Shown piece after piece: positions 17,892 to 28,727 of a stretch of DNA of 64,000 bases; positions within the stretch are counted from its first letter, which is position 1, and each line of letters opens with the position of its first letter. The stretch spans positions 140,665 through 204,664 of the forward strand of contig JBMNFJ010000016.1 in NCBI GenBank assembly GCA_050949255.1, written 5' to 3'. The notes beneath the pieces were generated by a model that had not been told where the DNA came from, did not search any database, and was given only the letters and a program-made list of their open reading frames with translations. The position numbers were made by a program, and so were the translations under genes. This stretch comes from Caldicoprobacterales bacterium (GTDB lineage Bacteria > Bacillota > Clostridia > Caldicoprobacterales > UBA3941).

Positions 17892-19043
17892 ATGAAAATC
17901 TTACATATCGCAGATTTACATATTGGTAAGCGGGTCAATGGATTTAACATGATCGAGGATCAGGAGTACATACTGGATGAAATTTTGAAGTTAACAGAGA
18001 GTACAAAGCCCGGAGCTGTTCTAATGGCCGGGGATATCTACGACAAAAGTCAGCCTTCCACTGAGGCTGTAGAATTATTGGACGAATTTCTAACCAGGTT
18101 GGCATTACTGGGACAACCTGTGTTTATAATCAGCGGAAATCATGACTCCCCCGAACGATTAAGCTTTGGTAGCCGAATCATGGAGAACAACGGACTCCAT
18201 ATCTCGGGCGTGTTTGATGGTTTTCTCCAAAAGACGACCCTGGAGGACGAATATGGCAAGGTCAACATATATATGCTGCCCTTTATAAAACCCGCCATGG
18301 TCAGGCCGTTTTTCGAAGAACCGGTAGAATCCTATGAAGAAGCAATCAAAATGGTGATTTCTGAATCTGGGATCAATACGGATGAAAGAAATATTCTTGT
18401 GGCCCATCAATTCGTGGTAAGCGGAATGGCACAACCCCAGATATCGGACTCGGAAACCGTATCCATAGGAGGATTGGATCATGTAGATGCCTCCGTCTTT
18501 GATGATTTTGACTATGTCGCCTTGGGACACCTTCATAGGTCTCAGCGAATAGGACGGGATTGTATCCGCTATGCCGGTTCACCCCTTAAATATTCCTTTT
18601 CAGAAGCTCGCTATAGAAAATCCGTGACCCTTGTTGAGATGGGTAGAAAGGGAGAGATCCTGATAGATCAAATACCACTTACTCCCCTGCGGGATCTACG
18701 GGAAATCAGGGGACCTATCAGGGAGCTGATTCGCATTGGGAATGAGGATCCGAAAGGTTCCATGGATTATATCCATGCTATTATCACCGATGAGGAAGAA
18801 ATCTATGATGCCTTAGGGCAGCTAAGGCAGGTCTACCCAAATCTAATGGCCTTGGATCTTGAAAATAGCCGTACCCAACAGGTCTATGATTCCGAAGCCC
18901 TGGTTGCCAGCAATGTAGCAGAAAAGGATCCCTTGGATTTATTCTCTGAATTCTATCAGATACAGAATAACCAGGAGTTAACCGAGGATGAGATAAGGGT
19001 CATGAAGGAAATCTTTCAGCAGGCAGGGGGGATCGGGATATGA
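17892..19043 (+). CDS. sbcD: Exonuclease SbcD (Mre11-like)
   Basis: MKILHIADLHIGK, AGDIYD and GNHDSP are calcineurin-like phosphoesterase motifs. The stop overlaps the sbcC start. Confidence 0.9.
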   Translation: MKILHIADLHIGKRVNGFNMIEDQEYILDEILKLTESTKPGAVLMAGDIYDKSQPSTEAVELLDEFLTRLALLGQPVFIISGNHDSPERLSFGSRIMENNGLHISGVFDGFLQKTTLEDEYGKVNIYMLPFIKPAMVRPFFEEPVESYEEAIKMVISESGINTDERNILVAHQFVVSGMAQPQISDSETVSIGGLDHVDASVFDDFDYVALGHLHRSQRIGRDCIRYAGSPLKYSFSEARYRKSVTLVEMGRKGEILIDQIPLTPLRDLREIRGPIRELIRIGNEDPKGSMDYIHAIITDEEEIYDALGQLRQVYPNLMALDLENSRTQQVYDSEALVASNVAEKDPLDLFSEFYQIQNNQELTEDEIRVMKEIFQQAGGIGI

Positions 19044-22000
19044 AGCCAATAAAGTTGGTAATGAGCGCCTTTTGTTCCTATGCGGATAGAATAGAATTGG
19101 ATATGACCGCATTCAAGGGTAGGGGACTATTTCTGATTACAGGCGATACGGGATCTGGGAAAACCACTATCTTTGATGCCATAGCCTTTGCCCTGTTCGG
19201 GGAGGCCAGCGGCTCTACCCGGGGAGTGGAGACCCTGCGCAGCGATTTTGCGAAGCCCGATACCGAAACCTATGTGGAGTTTACCTTTTTACACAGGGAC
19301 AAGCAGTATACTGTAACCCGGAATCCCCGCTATGAAAGGCTGAAACGAAGCGGCCAGGGCTTGACTACCGAAAGTGCCAACGCTACCTTGGAGCTTCCAA
19401 GTGGGGATATCATCACCGGCCTCAACAATGTTACGGCAAAAATTGAGAGTACACTCGGTATCAATTATCGCCAGTTTAAGCAAATAGCCATGATTGCTCA
19501 AGGGGAATTTTTACAGTTATTGCTGGCCAATACTAAGGAACGGGGTGAGATCTTCAGACGGGTATTCAATACAGACCTCTATCAAATAGCCCAGAGCCTG
19601 TTAAAGGAGAGAGAACGGGAGACTAAGAAGCGGTGCGATGGTATTGAGCAGAGCATACTCCAATATATTTCGGGGATTTCCACTTCTGAAAGTGAAATAG
19701 GACAAAAATTAACAGATAGGATAAGCAATGCCAGTATACACACAGCCGAAGATATCCTTGTTGGGTTGCGGGAGCTTATCTCAGAAGATACCAGTAGTAG
19801 GAATGACCTAAAGAGGAAGTCAGATGAGCTGGAACAAAAACTTGCAGGTCAGATCGCCAGAATAACAGAGGGGCAGTATATAAATCAATTCTTTCAGGAC
19901 CTGAGAGTAGCTGAGCAAAGGGAAAAAGCCTTGGCTGCGAACCGGGAAAAGCATAGTAAAGAAAAGGAAGAATTGGAGATGGCTGAAAAAGCCCTATACA
20001 CCATCCTTCCTTTAGAGACCGCCTATAGGCGGGAAAAGAAGACCAAAGAGGGGCTTGAGGAGAATATTGCAAAATTGGTCCAGGTTATCGAAGTCCAGGA
20101 TAAGGAACTTCAATTAACCAGTAAAAACTATAAGGCTGAAATGGACAAGGAGCCGCTTCGTGAAAAGCTCACTTCGTCTATAGATGGTCTTAGAAAGCTG
20201 TTGCCGGTCTATGGGAAAGCCGAGGATTTGGAGAAGGACATAAAGGCCTTATCGGTTAGGTATAAGAGACTAAGCGATGAATTGGAAAAGTTGAAACTAA
20301 AAAAGAAGGGACTTATTGAGAATAGGGAAGCCTTGGCTGCGGAACTGGAGCAGCTGGGGGATATTGAGATAAGGCTCTCCAATTGTCAGCAGGAGATTAA
20401 ACAGTTGGAAACAGTTCTAGACCAACTAGTAGAGCTTCAAAACCAGCTGGCTAAATATAAGGCACTCAAAGCAGAGAGCAATAGACTACAAAAGCTGTTT
20501 AAAAAGACTCAGGATGAACATACAGCTATCAATATGGATTACCTGGATAAGGAGACTGCCTTCTTCCGCGAACAGGCGGGGATTATGGCGGGCACCCTTG
20601 AGGAGGGTAAGCCTTGCCCCGTGTGTGGTTCTACAACACATCCCAATAAGGCAGTACCGACAGCAGATGCCCCCAGTGAAGAAGAGCTTAAAAGTCTCAA
20701 GGAGAAAGTAGATATATCCAGGGAAGATATGGAAAGAGCCAGTAACCAATCAGCAACGAAGTTGACTGAGGAAAAATTGGCCAAGGAACAATTGCTAAAG
20801 GCTGCCGAGGTACACTTTCCAAAGCTGGAGGAGGATTTACAGGAGGAAGCCTTAAAATCCCTGATAGAATCGGCCCTGGACCAAAATAACGAGAAGAAGA
20901 AAGAATTAGATGATAGATATTTAAAGTTAAAGGAGCAGCTTGCTCGTAAATCTGAGGCAACAAAACAGCTTAAGTTGCTGGAGGAATCCCTCAAGGATTG
21001 CGAAGAACTAATGGATAAGCAGGAGGAAGAAAGGAATAACATCAATGCAGCCGTGGCTTCTATGGAGGGGGAACTTAGAACCCTAAAGTCCTCATTGGAA
21101 TATGAAAGCCATCAGCAGGCGGAAATGACCATTAAGGAATGGGAGAGCCAGCTGGACAAATTGAAAACTACCTTTAATAAAGCCGAACAAGCCTATCACA
21201 AGGCTAAGAATGAATTGGATAGCAATCGGACCCTTTTAAAAGATTATCAGGAAAGGCTAAGTGAGACCGAGAAAGCCAAAAATGATGCTTGGAAAGCGTA
21301 TACGGAAGGCATAATCAAATGCGGTTTTCGGGATGATGTCGATTACCATGAGGCCCTTAAGACCGAATCAGAAATTAGAGCACTTAAGAAATCAATCGAC
21401 GAGTATACAAGAGAGGTCCTGGCAGTTGAGCAGGATTTAAAAAGGTTTCGTGAGGAAACAAAGGGTAAGGAGGAGCAGGATCTGGAGGGCTTAAAGGCCA
21501 TACAGAAGGAATTGGAGGAGGCCAAAAGTCAGGTGGGAAAATCCATCCAGGTTCTGGTGACCCGACTGGAGACCAACAAATCCATTTTAACAGCCCTGGA
21601 GAAAGCCATAACCAAGGCAATCAGCTATCAGAAGGAATATCTACTATTGGGTAAACTGTCAAGGACGGCCAATGGGGAGCTTGCCGGGAAGCAAAAGCTG
21701 GCCTTTGAACAATATGTACAAGCTTCGTACTTTAACCGAATACTCATCGAATCCAATAAAAGGCTTAGGGTTATGACTAACAATAGATACGAGCTCCTTA
21801 GGAGGGAGGACGCCACAGATCTTCGGTCTAAGGGACTTGAGATCGATGTGCTGGATCACTATACCGGTCGGGTACGCTCGGTTAAGTCCTTATCCGGCGG
21901 AGAATCCTTTAAGGCGTCCCTATCTTTGGCTCTGGGGCTGTCGGATGTGATTCAAAGTTATGCAGGCGGCGTAGAGATCGATACCCTCTTTATCGACGAA

Positions 22001-22183
22001 GGCTTTGGAGCATTGGATACCGTATCCTTGGAGCAGGCAATACAGACCCTGGTAGGATTGACGGAAGGAAACCGGCTTGTAGGAATTATCTCCCATGTAA
22101 GCGAGTTGAAGGAAAGAATTGACCGGCAGATAGTGATTAAAAAGACCCCAAGGGGGAGCACCCTTAGTATCATAGGTGTTTAG
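19040..22183 (+). CDS. sbcC: Exonuclease SbcC (Rad50-like SMC ATPase)
   Basis: Walker A GDTGSGKTT, a long coiled coil with the zinc hook CPVCG, the signature LSGGE and Walker B LFIDEGFG. Confidence 0.9.
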   Translation: MKPIKLVMSAFCSYADRIELDMTAFKGRGLFLITGDTGSGKTTIFDAIAFALFGEASGSTRGVETLRSDFAKPDTETYVEFTFLHRDKQYTVTRNPRYERLKRSGQGLTTESANATLELPSGDIITGLNNVTAKIESTLGINYRQFKQIAMIAQGEFLQLLLANTKERGEIFRRVFNTDLYQIAQSLLKERERETKKRCDGIEQSILQYISGISTSESEIGQKLTDRISNASIHTAEDILVGLRELISEDTSSRNDLKRKSDELEQKLAGQIARITEGQYINQFFQDLRVAEQREKALAANREKHSKEKEELEMAEKALYTILPLETAYRREKKTKEGLEENIAKLVQVIEVQDKELQLTSKNYKAEMDKEPLREKLTSSIDGLRKLLPVYGKAEDLEKDIKALSVRYKRLSDELEKLKLKKKGLIENREALAAELEQLGDIEIRLSNCQQEIKQLETVLDQLVELQNQLAKYKALKAESNRLQKLFKKTQDEHTAINMDYLDKETAFFREQAGIMAGTLEEGKPCPVCGSTTHPNKAVPTADAPSEEELKSLKEKVDISREDMERASNQSATKLTEEKLAKEQLLKAAEVHFPKLEEDLQEEALKSLIESALDQNNEKKKELDDRYLKLKEQLARKSEATKQLKLLEESLKDCEELMDKQEEERNNINAAVASMEGELRTLKSSLEYESHQQAEMTIKEWESQLDKLKTTFNKAEQAYHKAKNELDSNRTLLKDYQERLSETEKAKNDAWKAYTEGIIKCGFRDDVDYHEALKTESEIRALKKSIDEYTREVLAVEQDLKRFREETKGKEEQDLEGLKAIQKELEEAKSQVGKSIQVLVTRLETNKSILTALEKAITKAISYQKEYLLLGKLSRTANGELAGKQKLAFEQYVQASYFNRILIESNKRLRVMTNNRYELLRREDATDLRSKGLEIDVLDHYTGRVRSVKSLSGGESFKASLSLALGLSDVIQSYAGGVEIDTLFIDEGFGALDTVSLEQAIQTLVGLTEGNRLVGIISHVSELKERIDRQIVIKKTPRGSTLSIIGV

Positions 22184-22289: not shown

Positions 22290-23867
22290 TTATTTATCAA
22301 CTGGATCGTACCCAACAACGGTCCATATTCCGTCATCATCCTGTCTAACCAACCTTTTTAGAAATACCTTTGCTATGGGTGTTTTCTCTCCACCTATCTC
22401 TACAATAGTCACTTCGTTAGTCTCATAGACAATTTTCATATCCTCGGTGTCTACGGGAAAATCACCTTGGATGCCGTCTGGCGATATTTGAAGTCCTACA
22501 AAGGTTTGAACTACGGCAAGGGGGCTTAACTGCCATGGTGAATGCCCTTCATCCACTTGTTTCTGATCCCTTTTTACGACCTCCATATCTACTTCAACCA
22601 ATACCTGAGGTTTTTGTGGCAAACTATTATCTGTATCTGCTATTTCCTGGGCTTCATCCATTTTGGAAGATTCTACATCTTCAACGGAGGTATCCCGATT
22701 TTCTTCCATCTGGTTTTCTTGGACTAATGTCACGTCATCGTTATCTTTCGTTGATAGGGGAGGTTTGCCTAAATCTTTAGCTCTGGTCAAACCATTGGTC
22801 AAACCGATTCCACCAATCAAAATGATTGTAGCTACTGCAATTATTGTCCATCTAAACGGTATCTTATTAAACTTCTTAATCATGATTATCCTCCTCTTAA
22901 GATCTGATTTATTCGTAGCCAACCCGATAGCTCCGGGATTCCAATAGGGCTTTGACAAAATTTCTAATAAACTAATTATAGTTTTTCCATAATCCTTACG
23001 TTTTTCCGGTTCAAGATAAGCCAATACATGGGCATCGCAGGCAATTTCACAGTCACTTCGCATCTTTCGAAAGGCATACCACACTACTGGATTAAACCAA
23101 TGCAAAGCCTGTATTATTACAATAATCCAATTTATTAATATATCCCTTCGTCTTAAGTGCACCATTTCGTGAAGAAATACATATTCAAGCTCTTCAGGTG
23201 ACAGTTCCTCCGCCAGATGATGCGATATTAGGATCTTTGGCTTAAAAAATCCGAAGAGGGAAGGGGCTGTTGCCTGAGGACTGTATACAATCCGGGGTAG
23301 CCTTTTGGTCCTTGTCCCTTTTCCTAAGCGCTCCAGAATCCCCACCATGTTATCCTCTACGCATTCAGGCATATTATTGATCTTGTAAAGCAGGATAGAA
23401 TATATTCCAAGATTATAGAGGAGTACCACAAGTACACCTACAGCCCAAATACCTTTGGCGGCGTTAATCCAAAATGGTGCTTGGAAAAAGTTATTTAGAT
23501 TATCGATGGTATCGGCTTTATTCTCCAGGCCTCCATGCAACGCTTGTCTGGCATCATCTTCTCTCTGGGGGGCCTGTCCTCCATCGTCAATGTTTGATAA
23601 GTTAAGGTTATGGCCTACATCAAACTGAGGTTTTGTATATATCTCTATATTTTCTATTACCTGTGGAACCAAATTAAAAATGCTAAAGGATGTTTCAGGG
23701 GCGTGGGGGATAACTAGTCTAACTATAAGTAAGAACCAGATATAATAGTGGAAGGCGGCATTGAACTTGTCCTTTAGCAACGCCTTTATAAGGATTATAA
23801 TCCCAGCCACAACACTTCCCATAAGGGACATAGCGATTACTGATTGAAATAGTTTATGTAGGCTCAA
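22290..23867 (-). CDS. BlaR1/MecR1-family M56 peptidase signal transducer with a short non-PBP C-terminal domain
   Basis: N-terminal TM segments, the zinc-peptidase motif FLHEMVHLRRRD, a further TM segment, then about 170 aa consisting of an acidic linker plus a small domain. Confidence 0.85.
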   Translation of the reverse strand: MSLHKLFQSVIAMSLMGSVVAGIIILIKALLKDKFNAAFHYYIWFLLIVRLVIPHAPETSFSIFNLVPQVIENIEIYTKPQFDVGHNLNLSNIDDGGQAPQREDDARQALHGGLENKADTIDNLNNFFQAPFWINAAKGIWAVGVLVVLLYNLGIYSILLYKINNMPECVEDNMVGILERLGKGTRTKRLPRIVYSPQATAPSLFGFFKPKILISHHLAEELSPEELEYVFLHEMVHLRRRDILINWIIVIIQALHWFNPVVWYAFRKMRSDCEIACDAHVLAYLEPEKRKDYGKTIISLLEILSKPYWNPGAIGLATNKSDLKRRIIMIKKFNKIPFRWTIIAVATIILIGGIGLTNGLTRAKDLGKPPLSTKDNDDVTLVQENQMEENRDTSVEDVESSKMDEAQEIADTDNSLPQKPQVLVEVDMEVVKRDQKQVDEGHSPWQLSPLAVVQTFVGLQISPDGIQGDFPVDTEDMKIVYETNEVTIVEIGGEKTPIAKVFLKRLVRQDDDGIWTVVGYDPVDK

Positions 23868-23895
23868 ACCTTGTCACCTCCTAAAAATTCCTGGC

Positions 23896-24258
23896 CTAAT
23901 CTAGTATGCGTCTTAATTCTTCAATCTCTTCCCGTGACAGTTCTTCACTGTCAACGAAACTAACCAATAACTTTTTTATAGAACCATCGAAGATTTTTTC
24001 TAAAAAGAATTTGGTTTCTTCCCTTATGCATTCTTCTTGAGATACCCGTGGGTAGTATGCATATGGCGTGGCACTCTTATCAACATTCAGGGCTCCTTTG
24101 TCAGCAAGGCGGCCAAGCAAGGTATGAATGGTCTTGGGGCTCCAGGTGGTATAGTTTTGCAATTCATTGATAACTTGACTGGCATTTAAAGGAGATTCCT
24201 TCCATAGAACCTTCATAACTTGCCATTCTGCATCAGAAATTTTGGGCAACTCTCTCAT
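23896..24258 (-). CDS. BlaI/MecI/CopY-family transcriptional repressor
   Basis: MRELPKISDAEWQVMKVLW... is a winged-helix penicillinase-repressor fold. SD GAAGGTGA lies upstream of ATG 24258. The track start 24267 is a GTG inside the SD. Confidence 0.9.
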   Translation of the reverse strand: MRELPKISDAEWQVMKVLWKESPLNASQVINELQNYTTWSPKTIHTLLGRLADKGALNVDKSATPYAYYPRVSQEECIREETKFFLEKIFDGSIKKLLVSFVDSEELSREEIEELRRILD

Positions 24259-24274
24259 AATTATCACCTTCTTC

Positions 24275-24326: not shown

Positions 24327-24408
24327 GCCCTATTTTCTAATAATTCCATTTGCCAGAGTCCAATAATTCATGCTATATTCATATTAAGCAAATAAATTGG
24401 AGGTACAT

Positions 24409-24912
24409 ATGATTATAGAATACAATGGGCATAGACCAAACATACATGAAAGCTGCTTCGTAGCAGAAAACGCGACCCTTATCGGGCAGGTTACCCTAAG
24501 GAAGAATGTCAACATATGGTATGGAGCAGTACTCCGTGGAGATGACCACTATATCTCCATCGGTGAAAACACCAATATACAGGATAATTGCGTCATTCAT
24601 ATCGATCATGATCTTCCCACCATAATTGGGGACTTTGTAACCGTAGGTCACGGTGCCATAGTACACGCTTGCAAGGTTGGAAACAATGTACTGATTGGTA
24701 TGGGAGCAATAGTGCTAAACGGTGCAGAGATAGGGGATAACGTGATAATTGCAGCGGGCTCTCTGGTGCCTCCGGGCAAGAAGATACCTTCAAATACTTT
24801 AGTTATGGGATCCCCGGCTAAAGTCACCCGGGAATTGACTGAGAAGGATATATCGGATATAAGGGATTCTGCAATATATTATGCTGAATTGGCTAACAAA
24901 TACAGGAAATAA
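24409..24912 (+). CDS. Gamma-carbonic-anhydrase-like hexapeptide-repeat protein (YrdA/PaaY family)
   Basis: Left-handed beta-helix hexapeptide repeats (IGDNVIIAAGSLV etc.). GGAGG lies upstream of ATG 24409. Confidence 0.8.
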   Translation: MIIEYNGHRPNIHESCFVAENATLIGQVTLRKNVNIWYGAVLRGDDHYISIGENTNIQDNCVIHIDHDLPTIIGDFVTVGHGAIVHACKVGNNVLIGMGAIVLNGAEIGDNVIIAAGSLVPPGKKIPSNTLVMGSPAKVTRELTEKDISDIRDSAIYYAELANKYRK

Positions 24913-24943
24913 TCGCCCTGAGCTGCCATATTCCCAAAAAACC

Positions 24944-24972
24944 TTGTAATTTCATAGGACTATTAGTATAAT
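24944..24972 (+). promoter_or_regulatory. Sigma-A-type promoter of the ABC-F leader
   Basis: TTGTAA (24944-24949), a 17-nt spacer, then TATAAT (24967-24972). Confidence 0.6.
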
Positions 24973-25003
24973 AATAGCATAACAGAAAATTTTGAGGTGC
25001 GAA

Positions 25004-25027
25004 ATGAGGAAAGTGTTCTTTAGCTGA
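25004..25027 (+). promoter_or_regulatory. Candidate leader peptide uORF (MRKVFFS*)
   Basis: GAGGTG SD sits 4 nt upstream of ATG 25004. The uORF has seven codons plus TGA. Codons 4-7 (GTGTTCTTTA, 25013-25022) are perfectly complementary to TAAAGAACAC at 25100-25109. Confidence 0.35.
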
Positions 25028-25172
25028 TAAAATCGAATAATTCCTTGAAAGAATGCAATTACCTTGGTATAGGTGTGCTCTTTTTTAGGAAATGCCGGTT
25101 AAAGAACACAAAGAGCTAAATAGGATTAGCCTATAACTTTTTTGTATTTCCATTTATTTATATTGGTTATTT

Positions 25173-25216
25173 AAACTACAGCATGGCTTTATGTGTTTGC
25201 TGTAGTTTTTTGTTTT
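25173..25216 (+). terminator. Intrinsic terminator within the ABC-F leader (candidate attenuator)
   Basis: AAACTACAGCA (25173-25183) pairs with TGCTGTAGTTT (25198-25208). The U-run continues as TTTTTTGTTTT. Confidence 0.75.
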
Positions 25217-25432
25217 AGTATGGGCTATTAAGTGTTAAAGCCTTCTACTGTCATTTCCTGAATTCAACTATTTTTAGGATAGATACCTTACCTTGGGGTT
25301 TAAACTCTCTAAACATTTTTCTTGATTCAATTCTATGTAAATTGCATTCTTTATAGCATAAAAACAGGGAGCTTGGTCTCTTTTAAAGAAAAGATCTAAT
25401 TCGTAATATGTAGAATATAGGGAGATGATCTA

Positions 25433-27190
25433 ATGAATTTAAGCTTTAACAATCTTTCCAAGGGATACGACGGTAAGATGATTTTTGAAAATATAAGCGG
25501 ACAAATAGATGATGGGGACAGAATAGGCCTTATTGGTGCTAATGGTGTAGGTAAGACGACCCTGGTAAACATATTAACAGGTAGGGAAGAAAGAGATTCC
25601 GGGGAAATTAGATATACGCCCTCCTATATAAACATCCTGTATATAGAACAATATCCCAAATTCGAAAGGGGTATAACCGTATACCAGGATATTATAGGCT
25701 TCCTATCCAGGTCAAAGGATTATCAGGATGACTTTAGGGATATGGAAAAAATAGGTGCCATGGCAAGGACAGCATTAAACAAGGTAGGGCTAGGTAGGGA
25801 AAAATGGGATCAGGATGTGGAAAACCTTAGTGGAGGAGAAAAAACCAAGCTGATACTGTCCAGGATGCTTGTAACCAAATTTGATTTTCTTATATTGGAT
25901 GAACCAACCAACCACCTGGATATAGATACCTCCGACTGGTTGGAAGATTTTATTAAAGGCCTGGATAAACCCATGATTATAATATCCCACGATCGCTTTT
26001 TCCTGGATAATACGGTAAACAGGATATGGGAATTGGCTGACCAGGGGCTAAAGGCATATGAAGGCAACTACAGCAGCTACAGAGATCAGGAGGATATCCG
26101 GCTAAAACATATAGAAAGGGAATATGAAAAACAGCAAACCAGAATCCAGGAATTAAGGGAAATGATAAGCGATAGGGAGAATTGGTATAGAAGTGCCCAC
26201 AAATCCGCGGGTCAAAATGATTATCTTAGATCAAGGGCCAAAAAGCATGCCAGTTCATTGAAAGCTAAGAGGAGCCAACTGGAACGGTTGGAAGAAGAAA
26301 AGATAGAAAAGCCTCGAAAGCAGCTGTCTCCAGCTTTCGAGATCATAAATAAGAATATAATAGGCAGGAAATTTCCCCGATTCCTTATCAGGGGAAAAAA
26401 CATAAGCAAGAGCTTTGGTCAGAACCAAGTTTTGGACAATATATCCTTTAATGTAGAAAGAAAGGACAAAATAGCGGTGATTGGAGCCAACGGCTCTGGG
26501 AAAACCACTTTTTTAAAGACACTGTGTGGTATCCATGATGATTACGTAGGTACCCTGCAGATAAGTCCGTCGGTTAATATGGGCTATTTTTCTCAGGAAC
26601 TTGAAAATCTAAACTATGGGGCTACAATACTTGAGGACGTATTAACGGTGGGCGGTTCTGTTGGTGATGTTAGACTTCTTTTGGCATGCCTTCTTTTCAG
26701 GGGAGATGATGTATTCAAAAGGGTAGGGGATTTAAGTATGGGCGAAAAGGGTAGGGTAGCCTTCGCGAAACTCATCCTATCCGATGCCAACCTATTGGTC
26801 CTGGACGAACCTACGAACTATATGGATATTCAGTCCAGGGAAAAGGTGGAGGAAGCCTTAGAGCAGTTTGAGGGTACCATTATATTTGTTTCCCATGACA
26901 GATATTTTGTTAAGAGGCTGGCTAATAGGATTTTTGTCATTGAGGACAAAAGGCTTCGCTGCTTTGATAGCAACTACGAGGTCTATCTGGCAAGGACTAG
27001 CACTGTCGAATCCCAAGGGACCAAGGAAGATGGACAGAGACAGATGAAAGAGGATATTATGAAACTGGAAACGGAACTGGCATATTTAGGAGGTAAGCTG
27101 GACGGGACACTGGATGAGGAAGAGAAGGAAGAATTAAGCAAAAGGTATCTCCAATTGGCCAGGGAATTAAACAGGATGAAGGGTTTATAA
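25433..27190 (+). CDS. ABC-F family ATPase (two NBDs, long inter-domain linker, C-terminal coiled-coil extension), candidate ribosome-protection type
   Basis: Two Walker A motifs (GANGVGKTT, GANGSGKTT), two signature motifs (LSGGEK, LSMGEK) and no TM domain. A basic linker of about 90 aa (residues about 210-300) joins the two NBDs. Confidence 0.9.
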   Translation: MNLSFNNLSKGYDGKMIFENISGQIDDGDRIGLIGANGVGKTTLVNILTGREERDSGEIRYTPSYINILYIEQYPKFERGITVYQDIIGFLSRSKDYQDDFRDMEKIGAMARTALNKVGLGREKWDQDVENLSGGEKTKLILSRMLVTKFDFLILDEPTNHLDIDTSDWLEDFIKGLDKPMIIISHDRFFLDNTVNRIWELADQGLKAYEGNYSSYRDQEDIRLKHIEREYEKQQTRIQELREMISDRENWYRSAHKSAGQNDYLRSRAKKHASSLKAKRSQLERLEEEKIEKPRKQLSPAFEIINKNIIGRKFPRFLIRGKNISKSFGQNQVLDNISFNVERKDKIAVIGANGSGKTTFLKTLCGIHDDYVGTLQISPSVNMGYFSQELENLNYGATILEDVLTVGGSVGDVRLLLACLLFRGDDVFKRVGDLSMGEKGRVAFAKLILSDANLLVLDEPTNYMDIQSREKVEEALEQFEGTIIFVSHDRYFVKRLANRIFVIEDKRLRCFDSNYEVYLARTSTVESQGTKEDGQRQMKEDIMKLETELAYLGGKLDGTLDEEEKEELSKRYLQLARELNRMKGL

Positions 27191-27365: not shown

Positions 27366-28727
27366 ATGAACCTTTCAGAATTGCCTATAGGTGAATTGTT
27401 AAATCTCCGTGGATTTGATTGTAGCTGCGGTAAAAAACATAAAACCGCACTCTCCCATCTTGAGATTGGCCCTGGTGCTTTGGATAACTTATTCTTTGTA
27501 TTAGAAAAATATCAAGTAAAAAAGCCCTTTATAATATGTGATAAAAATACTCTTAAAGCTGCCGGAGAGATAGTATATGATATGTTAAACAGGAAAGGCA
27601 TGGACTATGAATCCTATGTTTTTCCCCAGGATGAAGTTGAACCTGACGAATACTCTGTTGGTCAGATAATCATGTCCTTTGATCCCTCCTGCGATTTTAT
27701 AATAGCTGTAGGCAGCGGGGTTATTAATGATATTGCAAAGATCATTGCAAAGGCCTCAAGCCGTGACTATCTCTTAATTGCAACAGCACCATCTATGGAT
27801 GGGTTTGCATCGAATTCTTCCTCTATGATACAAAATGGTGTGAAGGTTACAATCTATACGGTATGCCCTGTAGCTATAATCGCAGATATAGACATCATGA
27901 AAGAGGCACCTATGCTCATGATTCAAGCGGGTTTAGGCGATATGGTAGCTAAGTATGTCAGTATATGCGAATGGAGAATATCTAATATCATAACGGGTGA
28001 GTACTATTGTCCGCAGGTTGCAGGTCTTATGAGAGCAGCATTGGAAAAGTGTGTTAATACAGCCTCCAGCTTGATGGATAGGGATCCCCAAGGTATTTTA
28101 AGTTTGACAGAAGGGTTGATACTTTCAGGAATAGCCATGAGTTTTGCAGAAGTTTCGCGGCCTGCATCCGGTCTTGAGCATTATTTTTCCCATATATTCG
28201 ATATGAGCAAGTTGGAAAAGGGAACACCCGGTTCACTACATGGCATACAGGTAGGTATCGGTACGGTTCTCACCTTGCTAGTATATGATAAGATGCGATT
28301 TATAAAACCTGATAGGGATAGAGCAATTGCCCATGTAGAGGCATTTGATTATAAACAATGGGAAAGCAGAATGAAGCGAATATTTGGTAAGAATGCAGAG
28401 GCCCTTATTGAATTGGAAGGGAAAGAAGGTAAGAACGATAAGGATAATCATTCAAAAAGGCTGGAAGCTATACTTGGGAATTGGAGCAAGATAAAGGAGA
28501 TAATAGAACAGGAGCTTCCTTCCTCCAAGTATGTAGAGAACCTTTTAAAGGATATTGGTGCACCGATCAGACCAAGGGATATTGGTATCAAGGATGATCT
28601 TACTAAAGATGCATTTTTGGGCTCCAGAGAAGTGCGGGATAAATATATAGCCACCAGCCTATTGTGGGATTTAGGCCTCTTGGATCAATATGCTGAAGAA
28701 CTGGTTAGGGAGATAAGGACTATATAA
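27366..28727 (+). CDS. sn-Glycerol-1-phosphate dehydrogenase-like (AraM/EgsA, Fe-ADH_2 superfamily) enzyme
   Basis: The dehydroquinate-synthase-like/Fe-ADH fold is suggested by GSGVINDIAK, PSMDGFASN and the His-rich metal site (GLEHYFSH ... LHGIQVG). At 453 aa it is longer than AraM. Confidence 0.6.
   Translation: MNLSELPIGELLNLRGFDCSCGKKHKTALSHLEIGPGALDNLFFVLEKYQVKKPFIICDKNTLKAAGEIVYDMLNRKGMDYESYVFPQDEVEPDEYSVGQIIMSFDPSCDFIIAVGSGVINDIAKIIAKASSRDYLLIATAPSMDGFASNSSSMIQNGVKVTIYTVCPVAIIADIDIMKEAPMLMIQAGLGDMVAKYVSICEWRISNIITGEYYCPQVAGLMRAALEKCVNTASSLMDRDPQGILSLTEGLILSGIAMSFAEVSRPASGLEHYFSHIFDMSKLEKGTPGSLHGIQVGIGTVLTLLVYDKMRFIKPDRDRAIAHVEAFDYKQWESRMKRIFGKNAEALIELEGKEGKNDKDNHSKRLEAILGNWSKIKEIIEQELPSSKYVENLLKDIGAPIRPRDIGIKDDLTKDAFLGSREVRDKYIATSLLWDLGLLDQYAEELVREIRTI

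Follow-up and report, generated by a model that had tools for sequence, protein, structure and literature searches.

The leader of Bacillus subtilis vmlR carries a hairpin with an upstream open reading frame (uORF), a pause hairpin with the NusG motif TTNTTT, a terminator, and a hairpin which sequesters the Shine-Dalgarno sequence (SD) until, in read-through transcripts, upstream residues open it (Takada et al. 2022, PMC9226507). For induction of cplR from Clostridioides difficile the essential event is stalling on the uORF and not premature termination (Obana et al. 2023, PMC10201436), and the uORFs of this group encode MR[I/M] for CplR, MK[L/Q] for VmlR2, MIN for VmlR and MAGN for LsaA (PMC10201436).

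The locus compared here with these systems lies in a stretch of 64,000 nucleotides (the window) from a Caldicoprobacterales bacterium (assembly GCA_050949255.1, contig JBMNFJ010000016.1, positions 140,665 to 204,664), in which a leader of about 460 bases is found 5' of a gene for an ABC-F ATPase resembling the antibiotic-resistance (ARE) members of that family. It is proposed, with a probability of roughly 0.7, that this leader is the 5' switch of an inducible ribosome-protection-type ABC-F gene, and that it senses ribosome stalling on a uORF of seven codons. The conserved rearrangement predicted from the aligned leaders frees the ribosome-binding site (RBS) of the ABC-F gene and does not involve the terminator by base pairing. 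To our knowledge only a handful of ARE ABC-F leaders have been dissected, namely those of vmlR, cplR, vga(A), msrD and lmrC.

Anatomy and distribution of the leader

The elements of the leader and its gene are located in the window as follows:

24944-24972, plus strand: sigma-70-type promoter, TTGTAA (24944-24949), 17 nt and TATAAT (24967-24972), score 10/12
24994-24999, plus strand: SD of the uORF, GAGGTG
25004-25027, plus strand: uORF of seven codons, MRKVFFS*, from ATG at 25004 to TGA at 25027; family consensus M-[R/K]-x-V-F-F-N*
25013-25026, plus strand: P1 helix, 5' strand (uORF codons 4-7 with the stop codon)
25042-25091, plus strand: hairpin P2, nested in P1 and ending in the T-run 25081-25086 (hairpin and TTNTTT)
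25087-25109, plus strand: segment 2, the putative switch strand (fold, inverted repeat, duplex energies)
25087-25094, plus strand: segment 2a, AGGAAATG, mimic of the ABC-F SD region
25095-25109, plus strand: segment 2b, CCGGTTAAAGAACAC, 3' strand of P1
25173-25216, plus strand: intrinsic terminator, stem 25173-25183 with 25198-25208 (arms 11/11 complementary), U-tract 25206-25216
25248-25259, plus strand: anti-SD box, CTGTCATTTCCT, able to pair with segment 2a (25087-25094) or the ABC-F SD (25421-25428) (inverted repeat, covariation)
25420-25435, plus strand: RBS of the ABC-F gene, GGGAGATGA, with the start codon ATG at 25433 (direct reading; GGAGATGAT motif conserved in the family)
25433-27190, plus strand: ABC-F ATPase, 585 amino acids, ribosomal protection-like (NF000355, Pfam, AlphaFold2 model, PDB match)

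Every element listed by an earlier, sequence-only reading of this DNA (the initial annotation) was present when positions 24700-25600 were read directly. The elements were also re-found by repeat and fold tools (minimum free energy (MFE) fold, inverted repeats, terminator hairpin), the terminator being missed by a simple scanner solely because its loop exceeds 8 nt. The near-consensus promoter TTGTAA-17-TATAAT, the SD-preceded mini-ORF MRKVFFS*, the 10-nt complement of uORF codons 4-7, the strong terminator and the atypical gap of about 210 nt between terminator and start codon, all pointed out in that annotation, are therefore real features of the locus. The promoter is the sole plus-strand promoter-like site, at a threshold of 9/12 or better, between 24380 and 25484, and transcription would start near 24979-24981; in the homologues a -10-like element, often the extended form TGnTAnAAT, lies at the same distance 5' of the uORF as in the window. 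The window leader (24980-25225) folds with a z score of -4.6, and none of 200 shuffles folds as well. An Rfam covariance-model scan of the leader assigned it to no family, giving just four chance-level matches (E 2-8) all far below gathering scores, and no description of the leader or of its ABC-F clade was found in the literature searched.

The same leader precedes orthologous ABC-F genes (46-93% amino-acid identity) at 47 other genome and metagenome loci of anaerobic Bacillota. A scan of GTDB genomes with the ABC-F protein gave 80 loci, of which one (L001) is 93% identical and about 40 more are 46-70% identical, the remainder being other ABC-F proteins at about 33%. The 46-70% loci belong to Clostridia, Desulfotomaculia, Syntrophomonadaceae, Dethiobacteria, Thermincola and Limnochordia, mostly as metagenome-assembled genomes. 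Carriers of the clade include Lutispora saccharofermentans (L023), Maledivibacter halophilus (L024) and Desulfotomaculum sp. (L012). Nearly all members of the 46-93% group have the leader upstream, including all 29 genome leaders retrieved by protein similarity, and the ABC-Fs of roughly 33% identity (L046-L080) lack it. Metagenome contigs were scanned with the uORF motif, and 29 of the 36 matches precede, within 200-530 nt, an ABC-F gene whose product is 48-69% identical to that of the window; one further match is a genuine leader with a disrupted downstream region, and six are chance matches without an SD or leader features. Alignment A1 holds 48 distinct leaders (that of the window and 47 others), 29 of the 48 found by protein similarity and 19 by the uORF motif.

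The leader was found before no gene other than those of this ABC-F clade, and never without the ABC-F gene except at the one disrupted locus. Since it precedes only ABC-F orthologues and is missing before the roughly 33% identical ABC-Fs, the distribution indicates that it is a specific, co-inherited part of the gene. The window and L001 share 186/187 positions of the leader at 24986-25172, against 93% nucleotide identity in the coding sequence, and this difference indicates that the leader is under strong purifying selection. Failure of the leader to be conserved had been named by the initial annotation as grounds for abandoning its reading, and the leader is instead conserved with the gene across the 48 loci. 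Conservation thus settles the question of whether the arrangement is due to chance: a translated-uORF leader before an ARE-like ABC-F gene is a real finding.

In the family the 5' modules follow one another as a -10 element; GAGGTG, 6 nt and ATGAGGAAAGTGTTTTTTAACTAA (MRKVFFN*); a AATTTAATA block; and a variable hairpin ending in TTTTTT. The 3' modules are AAGAGATGATAGTTAAAAAACACTTACAGG; a variable spacer; CTGCAGTATAACACC...GGTGTTTGCTGCAG with a T-tract; CTATCATCTCTT; and AAGGAGATGAT-N3-ATG.

Variants of this arrangement were also observed. At about 2400-2760 on the minus strand of locus L110 there is a genuine leader with SD, a uORF encoding MKIVFFN and segment 2, in which the terminator and the ABC-F gene are replaced by unrelated sequence with a long inverted repeat, GAGCTGTCATCCTGAGCG...CGCTCAGAATGACAGGC; an insertion or rearrangement seems to have taken place there. 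Other seven-codon uORFs, MSITILN, MNITILN, MSNIVLA and MIIIVLA, occur in ABC-F relatives at a greater distance (36-49% identical), among which uORFs lie at about -330 to -395 in L042, L044 and L048 and at about -83 and about -366 in L034, L035 and L040. Some of these relatives have a second uORF of 3-4 codons (MSIR, MGNK) directly before an anti-SD/SD pair, CTCTTTGTC / GACAAAGAG. As the uORFs differ in the more distant relatives, leader designs appear to diversify within the wider ABC-F clade.

The uORF, its pairing partners and the terminator

The uORF looks translatable in all 48 leaders, with GAGG or GGAG exactly 6 nt before the start in each, a start codon, and an in-frame stop after 5-9 codons; the SD bases are nearly invariant in A1. 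The peptide is M[RK]xVFFN in 40/48 leaders, a count biased by the 19 leaders retrieved with the uORF motif itself, and the 29 retrieved by protein similarity alone have the same uORF. In some lineages a shorter or longer T-run shifts the frame (MRIVF*, MRNVF*, MKESVF*, MKQVFLTK*), and the nucleotide motif and its pairing partner are retained. Because motif and partner are kept where the frame changes, the constraint which RNA pairing places on the VFFN codons is at least as strong as that from the peptide. The only conserved uORF codons lying outside the helix are M-[R/K], which are closer to the CplR and VmlR2 uORFs than to those of VmlR or LsaA, and which by analogy give a weak hint that early-elongation blockers of the pleuromutilin, lincosamide and streptogramin A (PLSA) type are sensed. 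An attenuator sensing Phe or another amino acid was considered and rejected, as the uORF holds at most two Phe codons and often one. A role for segment 2a as the RBS of a second uORF was likewise rejected, because the AUG directly adjoins the SD-like bases and the varying length of the A-run leaves the frame unconserved.

The 3' half of the uORF forms one strand of P1. In the inverted-repeat search 25013-25022 (GTGTTCTTTA) is perfectly complementary to 25100-25109 (TAAAGAACAC), and in the MFE fold the helix reaches 14 bp (25013-25026 with 25095-25109). By a rough estimate about 0.4 perfect 10-nt complements are expected in a 500-nt AT-rich stretch, and such a match is not rare alone. Across the family P1 (uORF strand AAGTGTTTTTTAACTA with TAGTTAAAAAACACTT) is paired in 94.8% of cells and has five pairs with changes on both sides, the compensatory variants including TTC/GAA in the window and in L045 and TTAAAC/GTTTAA in L012. 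The helices of P2 are 75-77% paired, with nine pairs changed on both sides. As a control the partners of each helix were slid by 1-3 columns, on which pairing falls to 37-50%. A scan for terminator-like structures flags the P2 position in several homologues too, and P2 with its T-run is a possible RNA polymerase pause site, analogous to SL-2 and the NusG TTNTTT pause of vmlR (PMC9226507).

The strongest covariation in the leader is between segment 2a (family consensus AAGAGATGATAG, directly 5' of the anti-uORF strand) and the anti-SD box (family consensus CTATCATCTCTT), an element absent from the initial annotation which lies just 3' of the terminator U-tract. This pair is the longest inverted repeat found in the window leader. 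In the 48 leaders it is paired in 89.1% of cells compared with 79.8% in shuffles and 40-64% in slid controls, with 58 double-change cells against 22.7 expected and a covariation score of 0.314 against 0.193; none of 500 shuffles reaches the observed value in pairing, double-change cells or covariation score. For duplexes of segment 2 with the post-terminator region the energy averages -18.7 kcal/mol and the z score against shuffles -5.4. The box also pairs with the ABC-F SD region (GAGATGAT in the family, GGAGATGA at 25421-28 in the window), in 87.3% of cells compared with 34-58% when slid. As one box pairs with both, segment 2a by its predicted pairing copies the SD region, and the box can be called an anti-SD.

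The consequence of occupying the uORF was modelled by masking it in a partition-function calculation, as an imitation of a stalled ribosome. Over the 48 leaders the SD is then paired with a mean modelled probability of 0.62 instead of 0.74 (Wilcoxon p = 4e-5, the sequences being related), with a drop of more than 0.1 in 24/48. In the window it falls from 0.89 to 0.56, and the partner in the unmasked state is around 25252, in the anti-SD box.

The terminator arms are AAACTACAGCA (25173-83) and TGCTGTAGTTT (25198-208), followed by TTTTTTGTTTT to 25216, and the hairpin has an energy of -15.2 kcal/mol. It is kept in all 48 leaders with 90.9% of cells paired and a T-tract always next to it, and is conserved in sequence as well as in shape. 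This conservation bears on the first alternative explanation, classical transcription attenuation, in which stalling would free the complementary strand to form an antiterminator with the terminator 5' arm, and regulated read-through would be the main control. The conserved terminator sequence would be compatible with alternative partners for pairing, the core of P1 recurs in the terminator inner stem AACAC/GTGTT, and the order of uORF hairpin, spacer, strong terminator and gene matches the leaders of vmlR, lmo0919 and vga(A) (PMC9226507; PMC10201436). However, an exhaustive scan of column pairs for conserved helices found none on the terminator 5' arm beyond the 5-bp GTGTT/AACAC match, and in 11/11 homologues folded with the uORF masked the terminator remains in the MFE fold, the freed A-run pairing with the U-tract. 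In transcripts of 12 sequences truncated before the 3' arm is made, the 5' arm is paired with a probability of 0.51 when the uORF is free and 0.50 when it is masked. Duplex energies between leader segments (the uORF strand, both P2 strands, segment 2, the spacer and two conserved unpaired blocks; eight segment pairs) and either terminator arm resemble those of shuffles, with mean z from -0.7 to +0.5, and the best mid-leader duplexes with the 5' arm are scattered, mostly in the GC-rich P2 region, with no conserved antiterminator among them. Classical attenuation is on this evidence unlikely, although it keeps some weight.

Like the ARE attenuation leaders, this one has a uORF with its own SD embedded in a hairpin, an intrinsic terminator between uORF and gene, and a sequestered SD which alternative pairing appears to relieve, as judged from covariation, pairing and modelled accessibility. 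The reading of the initial annotation, a ribosome-stalling attenuator, stands as far as a uORF leader conserved with an ARE-like ABC-F gene is concerned, but the conserved alternative partner proved to be the anti-SD box and not the terminator. Its antiterminator logic was not recovered, as no leader segment is complementary to the terminator arms beyond chance and the terminator survives masking of the uORF. A link from stalling to read-through of the classical kind is therefore not supported by the alignment; with no antiterminator found and the anti-SD box as the partner of segment 2, the regulated step which the analysis does support would be translational.

The proposed switch would work as follows. 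In the OFF state, which structure and covariation bear out, the 3' half of the uORF and its stop codon pair with segment 2 to form P1, enclosing P2; most transcripts would stop at the intrinsic terminator, and in those which read through, the anti-SD box would pair with the ABC-F SD. In the ON state, suggested by the anatomy and by the leaders of vmlR and cplR, for which experiments exist, a drug-stalled ribosome on the uORF would block the formation of P1, and the freed segment 2, the 5' part of which copies the SD, would pair with the U-tract and the anti-SD box, leaving the SD exposed and the ABC-F translated. P2 with its T-run probably pauses RNA polymerase so that translation of the uORF keeps pace with transcription. 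The terminator most likely sets a low basal level, its passage being either a constitutive leak or dependent on a factor or on kinetics invisible in the sequence. The inducer is probably an antibiotic of the peptidyl-transferase centre, of the pleuromutilin, lincosamide or streptogramin A type, which is proposed because the conserved M-[R/K] matches the uORFs of CplR (MR[I/M]) and VmlR2 (MK[L/Q]); this is the weakest step.

Further features are peculiar to the window lineage or have no assigned partner:

25030-25041: conserved block AAtTtAATA (A1 columns about 46-56)
25110-25116, plus strand: AAAGAGC, complement of GCTCTTT at 25077-25083, an alternative pairing (inverted repeat; window lineage only)
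25110-25119: conserved block ACAGGrrAA (A1 columns about 243-252), replaced by AAAGAGC in the window
25260-25419, plus strand: lineage-specific spacer of about 160 nt between anti-SD box and SD, in the window and L001 only

The GCTCTTT/AAAGAGC pairing noted in the initial annotation is present, but it is confined to the window lineage, homologues in A1 having ACAGGrrAA where the window has AAAGAGC, and it was rejected as a general element. Column-pair scans and duplex tests gave no partner above chance for two family-conserved blocks, namely AAtTtAATA, which follows the uORF stop, and ACAGGrrAA, which follows the anti-uORF strand.

Typical members have their terminator about 25-70 nt 5' of the start codon, with the anti-SD box directly 3' of the U-tract and the SD about 25-35 nt further on. 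The distance of about 210-215 nt in the window is specific to the window and L001, which have about 35 nt from U-tract to box and about 160 nt from box to SD. The insert evolves fast, with 79.6% identity and 8 gaps in the post-terminator stretch between the two compared with 93% in the coding sequence, and it contains no significant fold (z = 0.15) and no promoter-like site at 9/12 or better. It was rejected as a duplicated attenuator, as its local alignment to the leader scores the same as shuffles, and as a mobile element, as no copies occur elsewhere in the window or in 116 loci. It is best read from the sequence as a lineage-specific insertion tolerated by the switch. Within it, 25340-25352 forms a 13-nt perfect complement (AAAGAATGCAATT / AATTGCATTCTTT) with the P2 5' strand at 25048-25060; the match is 12/13 in L001, in a region only 80% conserved, against a rough chance expectation of about 0.01, and this pairing could add another long-range contact in read-through transcripts.

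The ABC-F protein and the remaining explanations

The protein passes the generic NCBIfam model for ribosomal protection-like ABC-F proteins (NF000355) with 485 bits against a cut-off of 380. It fails those of the housekeeping types: EttA (337 against 599 and 807), Uup (273 against 900), PRK15064, the YbiT-type entry (329 against 762) and PRK10636, the YheS-type entry (272 against 917). The initial annotation had regarded clustering with housekeeping ABC-Fs as evidence that would overturn its reading, and these scores point the other way.

Pfam finds ABC_tran twice and ABC_tran_Xtn (PF12848, 33.5 bits against a cut-off of 25.9, residues 199-297). The protein has the two nucleotide-binding domains (NBDs) of an ABC-F, each with a Walker A motif (GANGVGKT at 35, GANGSGKT at 351) and an H-loop (SHDRFFLD at 185, SHDRYFV at 487), as well as a helical inter-domain linker (PtIM/ARD) with no membrane domain, and its top fold matches are all ABC-F proteins. 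In the AlphaFold2 model (predicted local distance difference test, pLDDT, 85) the linker consists of helices 213-259 and 263-288 with a three-residue tip, and residues 515-584 form a three-helix C-terminal extension, in agreement with the extension foreseen in the initial annotation. The linker had also been described there as basic and is so on balance, with 22 Lys or Arg and 16 Asp or Glu in residues 213-300. HMMER spans, which cover the whole stretch from NBD1 to the end of NBD2 and not the linker by itself, appear about 16 residues longer than in EttA, about 4 shorter than in VmlR and about equal to Sal(B). The linker aligns to that of Sal(B) with small gaps only, and the linker of VmlR2 is 12 residues longer; not every ARE has an extended linker (Murina et al. 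2019, PMC6723617). In a sequence search of the PDB the protein scores highest against VmlR2 (300 bits), followed by Sal(B) (267) and VmlR (265), with EttA at 240, and Foldseek places VmlR2 (8BUU) first with PoxtA, EttA, YbiT, Sal(B) and VmlR close behind. By these searches the closest solved relative is VmlR2. The uncharacterised Firmicutes subfamilies FAF1, FAF2, SAF1 and BAF1 are candidate AREs (Murina et al. 2019, PMC6723617), and the window clade may be one of them, which is a candidate label only.

Several points weigh against the proposed switch. We infer stalling, induction and resistance in the source organism alike from the sequence. The uORF peptide appears to say little about which drug is sensed, since the nucleotide motif is kept despite shifts of the reading frame. 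Because the SD is invariant, its pairing with the anti-SD box shows no separate covariation. Masking has a modest thermodynamic effect on the SD, which about half of the leaders lack. In the window the box is about 160 nt from the SD with intervening RNA of no significant structure, and so the translational arm may be weaker there. It is also unsatisfying, as a design, that a strong terminator should be conserved and have no regulated bypass. The protein fails the models of all named ARE families, Vga (378 against 725), Sal (359 against 725), CplR (NF043038, 330 against 780), Msr (297 against 680), Lsa (256 against 750) and OptrA (252 against 1450), with the producer type also below cut-off; the likening to vga, lsa or msr in the initial annotation therefore does not extend to family membership. 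Finally, the protein matches ARE proteins only moderately better than it does EttA or YbiT, by sequence as well as by structure score.

The last two points bear on a second alternative, that the ABC-F is a stress-responsive housekeeping translation factor for general ribosome rescue, with a leader reporting any slowing of early elongation, such as by starvation, temperature or hard-to-translate sequences. The failure in all named ARE families and the structure scores against EttA and YbiT near those against ARE proteins would suit such a factor, as would the inheritance of gene and leader across many classes of anaerobic Bacillota at 46-70% identity and the lack of any close relative among PLSDB plasmids, where none is closer than 38% and the best are 34-38% identical. 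Wider regulatory roles have also been argued for ARE ABCFs in a recent study (PMC12421871). On the other hand, the ARE-wide model was passed where the EttA, Uup, YbiT-type and YheS-type models failed, the top match in sequence and structure, VmlR2, is a characterised resistance factor, and the uORF contains no single-amino-acid run of the kind suited to starvation sensing. We know of no housekeeping ABC-F with a uORF and terminator leader of this sort. Leaders which are controlled by a uORF and contain a terminator are typical of ARE-ABCFs (PMC10201436). A housekeeping role is thus doubtful.

A further and quite tentative reading, to which we give little credence, is that the locus belongs to an ABC-F subfamily of anaerobic Bacillota which is undescribed and of ancient inheritance, and which has a leader RNA family of its own. 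In such leaders a strong, sequence-conserved intrinsic terminator would lack any RNA antiterminator, and switching would come down to uORF, SD mimic and anti-SD box competing three ways across the terminator. If induction does raise read-through, the terminator would have to be bypassed by a mechanism new for ARE leaders, for which a factor- or pause-dependent route, or the exposed purine-rich SD mimic, are candidates. The M-[R/K]-x-V-F-F-N uORF might then report a class of translation stress other than that reported by the 3-4-codon uORFs of VmlR, CplR and LsaA.

It is highly improbable that the promoter, the uORF and the terminator are a separate small transcription unit, encoding a small RNA or a micropeptide, and that the ABC-F is expressed from its own promoter in the 210-nt gap: the unusually long, fast-evolving spacer of about 215 nt after the window terminator would allow for it, but there is no plus-strand promoter-like site between 24973 and 25484, typical members leave only about 25-70 nt from terminator to start codon, the leader occurs apart from the ABC-F only at the disrupted locus, and the covarying helix between segment 2a and the anti-SD box joins strands on either side of the terminator, which requires leader and ABC-F region to be on one RNA.

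The genes around the locus were also noted. On the minus strand at 22290-24267, about 700 nt upstream of the leader, Pfam identifies a divergent pair, a BlaR1-type M56 peptidase/sensor (525 amino acids) and a BlaI-type penicillinase repressor (123 amino acids), a second antibiotic-type sensing module beside the ABC-F; the synteny comparison with L001 covered 24452 onward and not this pair. The flanking genes encode a hexapeptide-repeat (gamma-carbonic-anhydrase-like) protein (24397-24912, plus strand) and an iron-containing alcohol dehydrogenase family protein (27366-28727, plus strand); both are ordinary chromosomal genes which also adjoin the ABC-F in L001, with no sign of a mobile element. 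Further upstream, 19040-22183 (plus strand) is an ORF of 1047 amino acids with an N-terminal Walker A motif, a long coiled-coil-like stretch and a C-terminal ABC signature, SbcC/Rad50-like by eye only.

Comparison with described leaders

With this locus an uncharacterised ABC-F clade, common in Bacillota of anaerobic digesters and sediments, gains a leader family which is well defined and supported by covariation; the general picture of how such genes are controlled is unchanged. The locus is a natural setting in which to test if translational de-repression is by itself enough for induction downstream of a constitutive terminator. Its seven-codon uORF consensus can be compared with drug-specific stalling rules, and the uORF start codon, SD mimic and anti-SD box are suited to compensatory mutation.

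With the erm-type attenuators (ermC and its relatives) the leader would share the principle that stalling on a leader peptide rearranges hairpins and exposes a sequestered SD. Unlike it, the erm leaders have no terminator between leader peptide and SD, encode other peptides, and regulate a methyltransferase. At the protein level, VmlR2 (8BUU), Sal(B) (7P48) and Vga(A) likewise have two NBDs, a helical-hairpin linker of similar length and a C-terminal helical extension, but identity to the window protein is only about 30%, and it is below the cut-offs for Vga, Sal, Msr, Lsa, OptrA and CplR.

The leader of B. subtilis vmlR resembles that of the window in having a short translated uORF in a 5' hairpin, a further hairpin with a T-rich tract, an intrinsic terminator, and an SD-sequestering element opened by upstream pairing in read-through transcripts, and in both cases the gene encodes an ARE-type ABC-F with a C-terminal extension. 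They differ in that the vmlR uORF has three codons (MIN) and its proposed antiterminator overlaps the terminator, whereas the window leader has seven codons (MRKVFFN/S), no antiterminator was found in it, and its pause-like hairpin is nested inside the uORF hairpin. The VmlR protein itself is distant, with about 26% identity over the structural alignment of the AlphaFold2 model in addition to its 265 bits in the PDB sequence search.

The cplR system of C. difficile likewise involves a clostridial chromosomal ARE-type ABC-F gene, a uORF starting with M-R, a terminator and SD sequestration. In cplR, however, the uORF is MR[I/M] followed by a stop and the terminator stem itself hides the SD, while in the window leader the SD would be hidden by a separate anti-SD box after the U-tract, for which an SD mimic 5' of the terminator competes, and the window protein is not a CplR (330 bits for NF043038 against a cut-off of 780). 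The result obtained for cplR, in which stalling and not termination is what matters for induction, nevertheless matches the translational switch proposed for the window leader.

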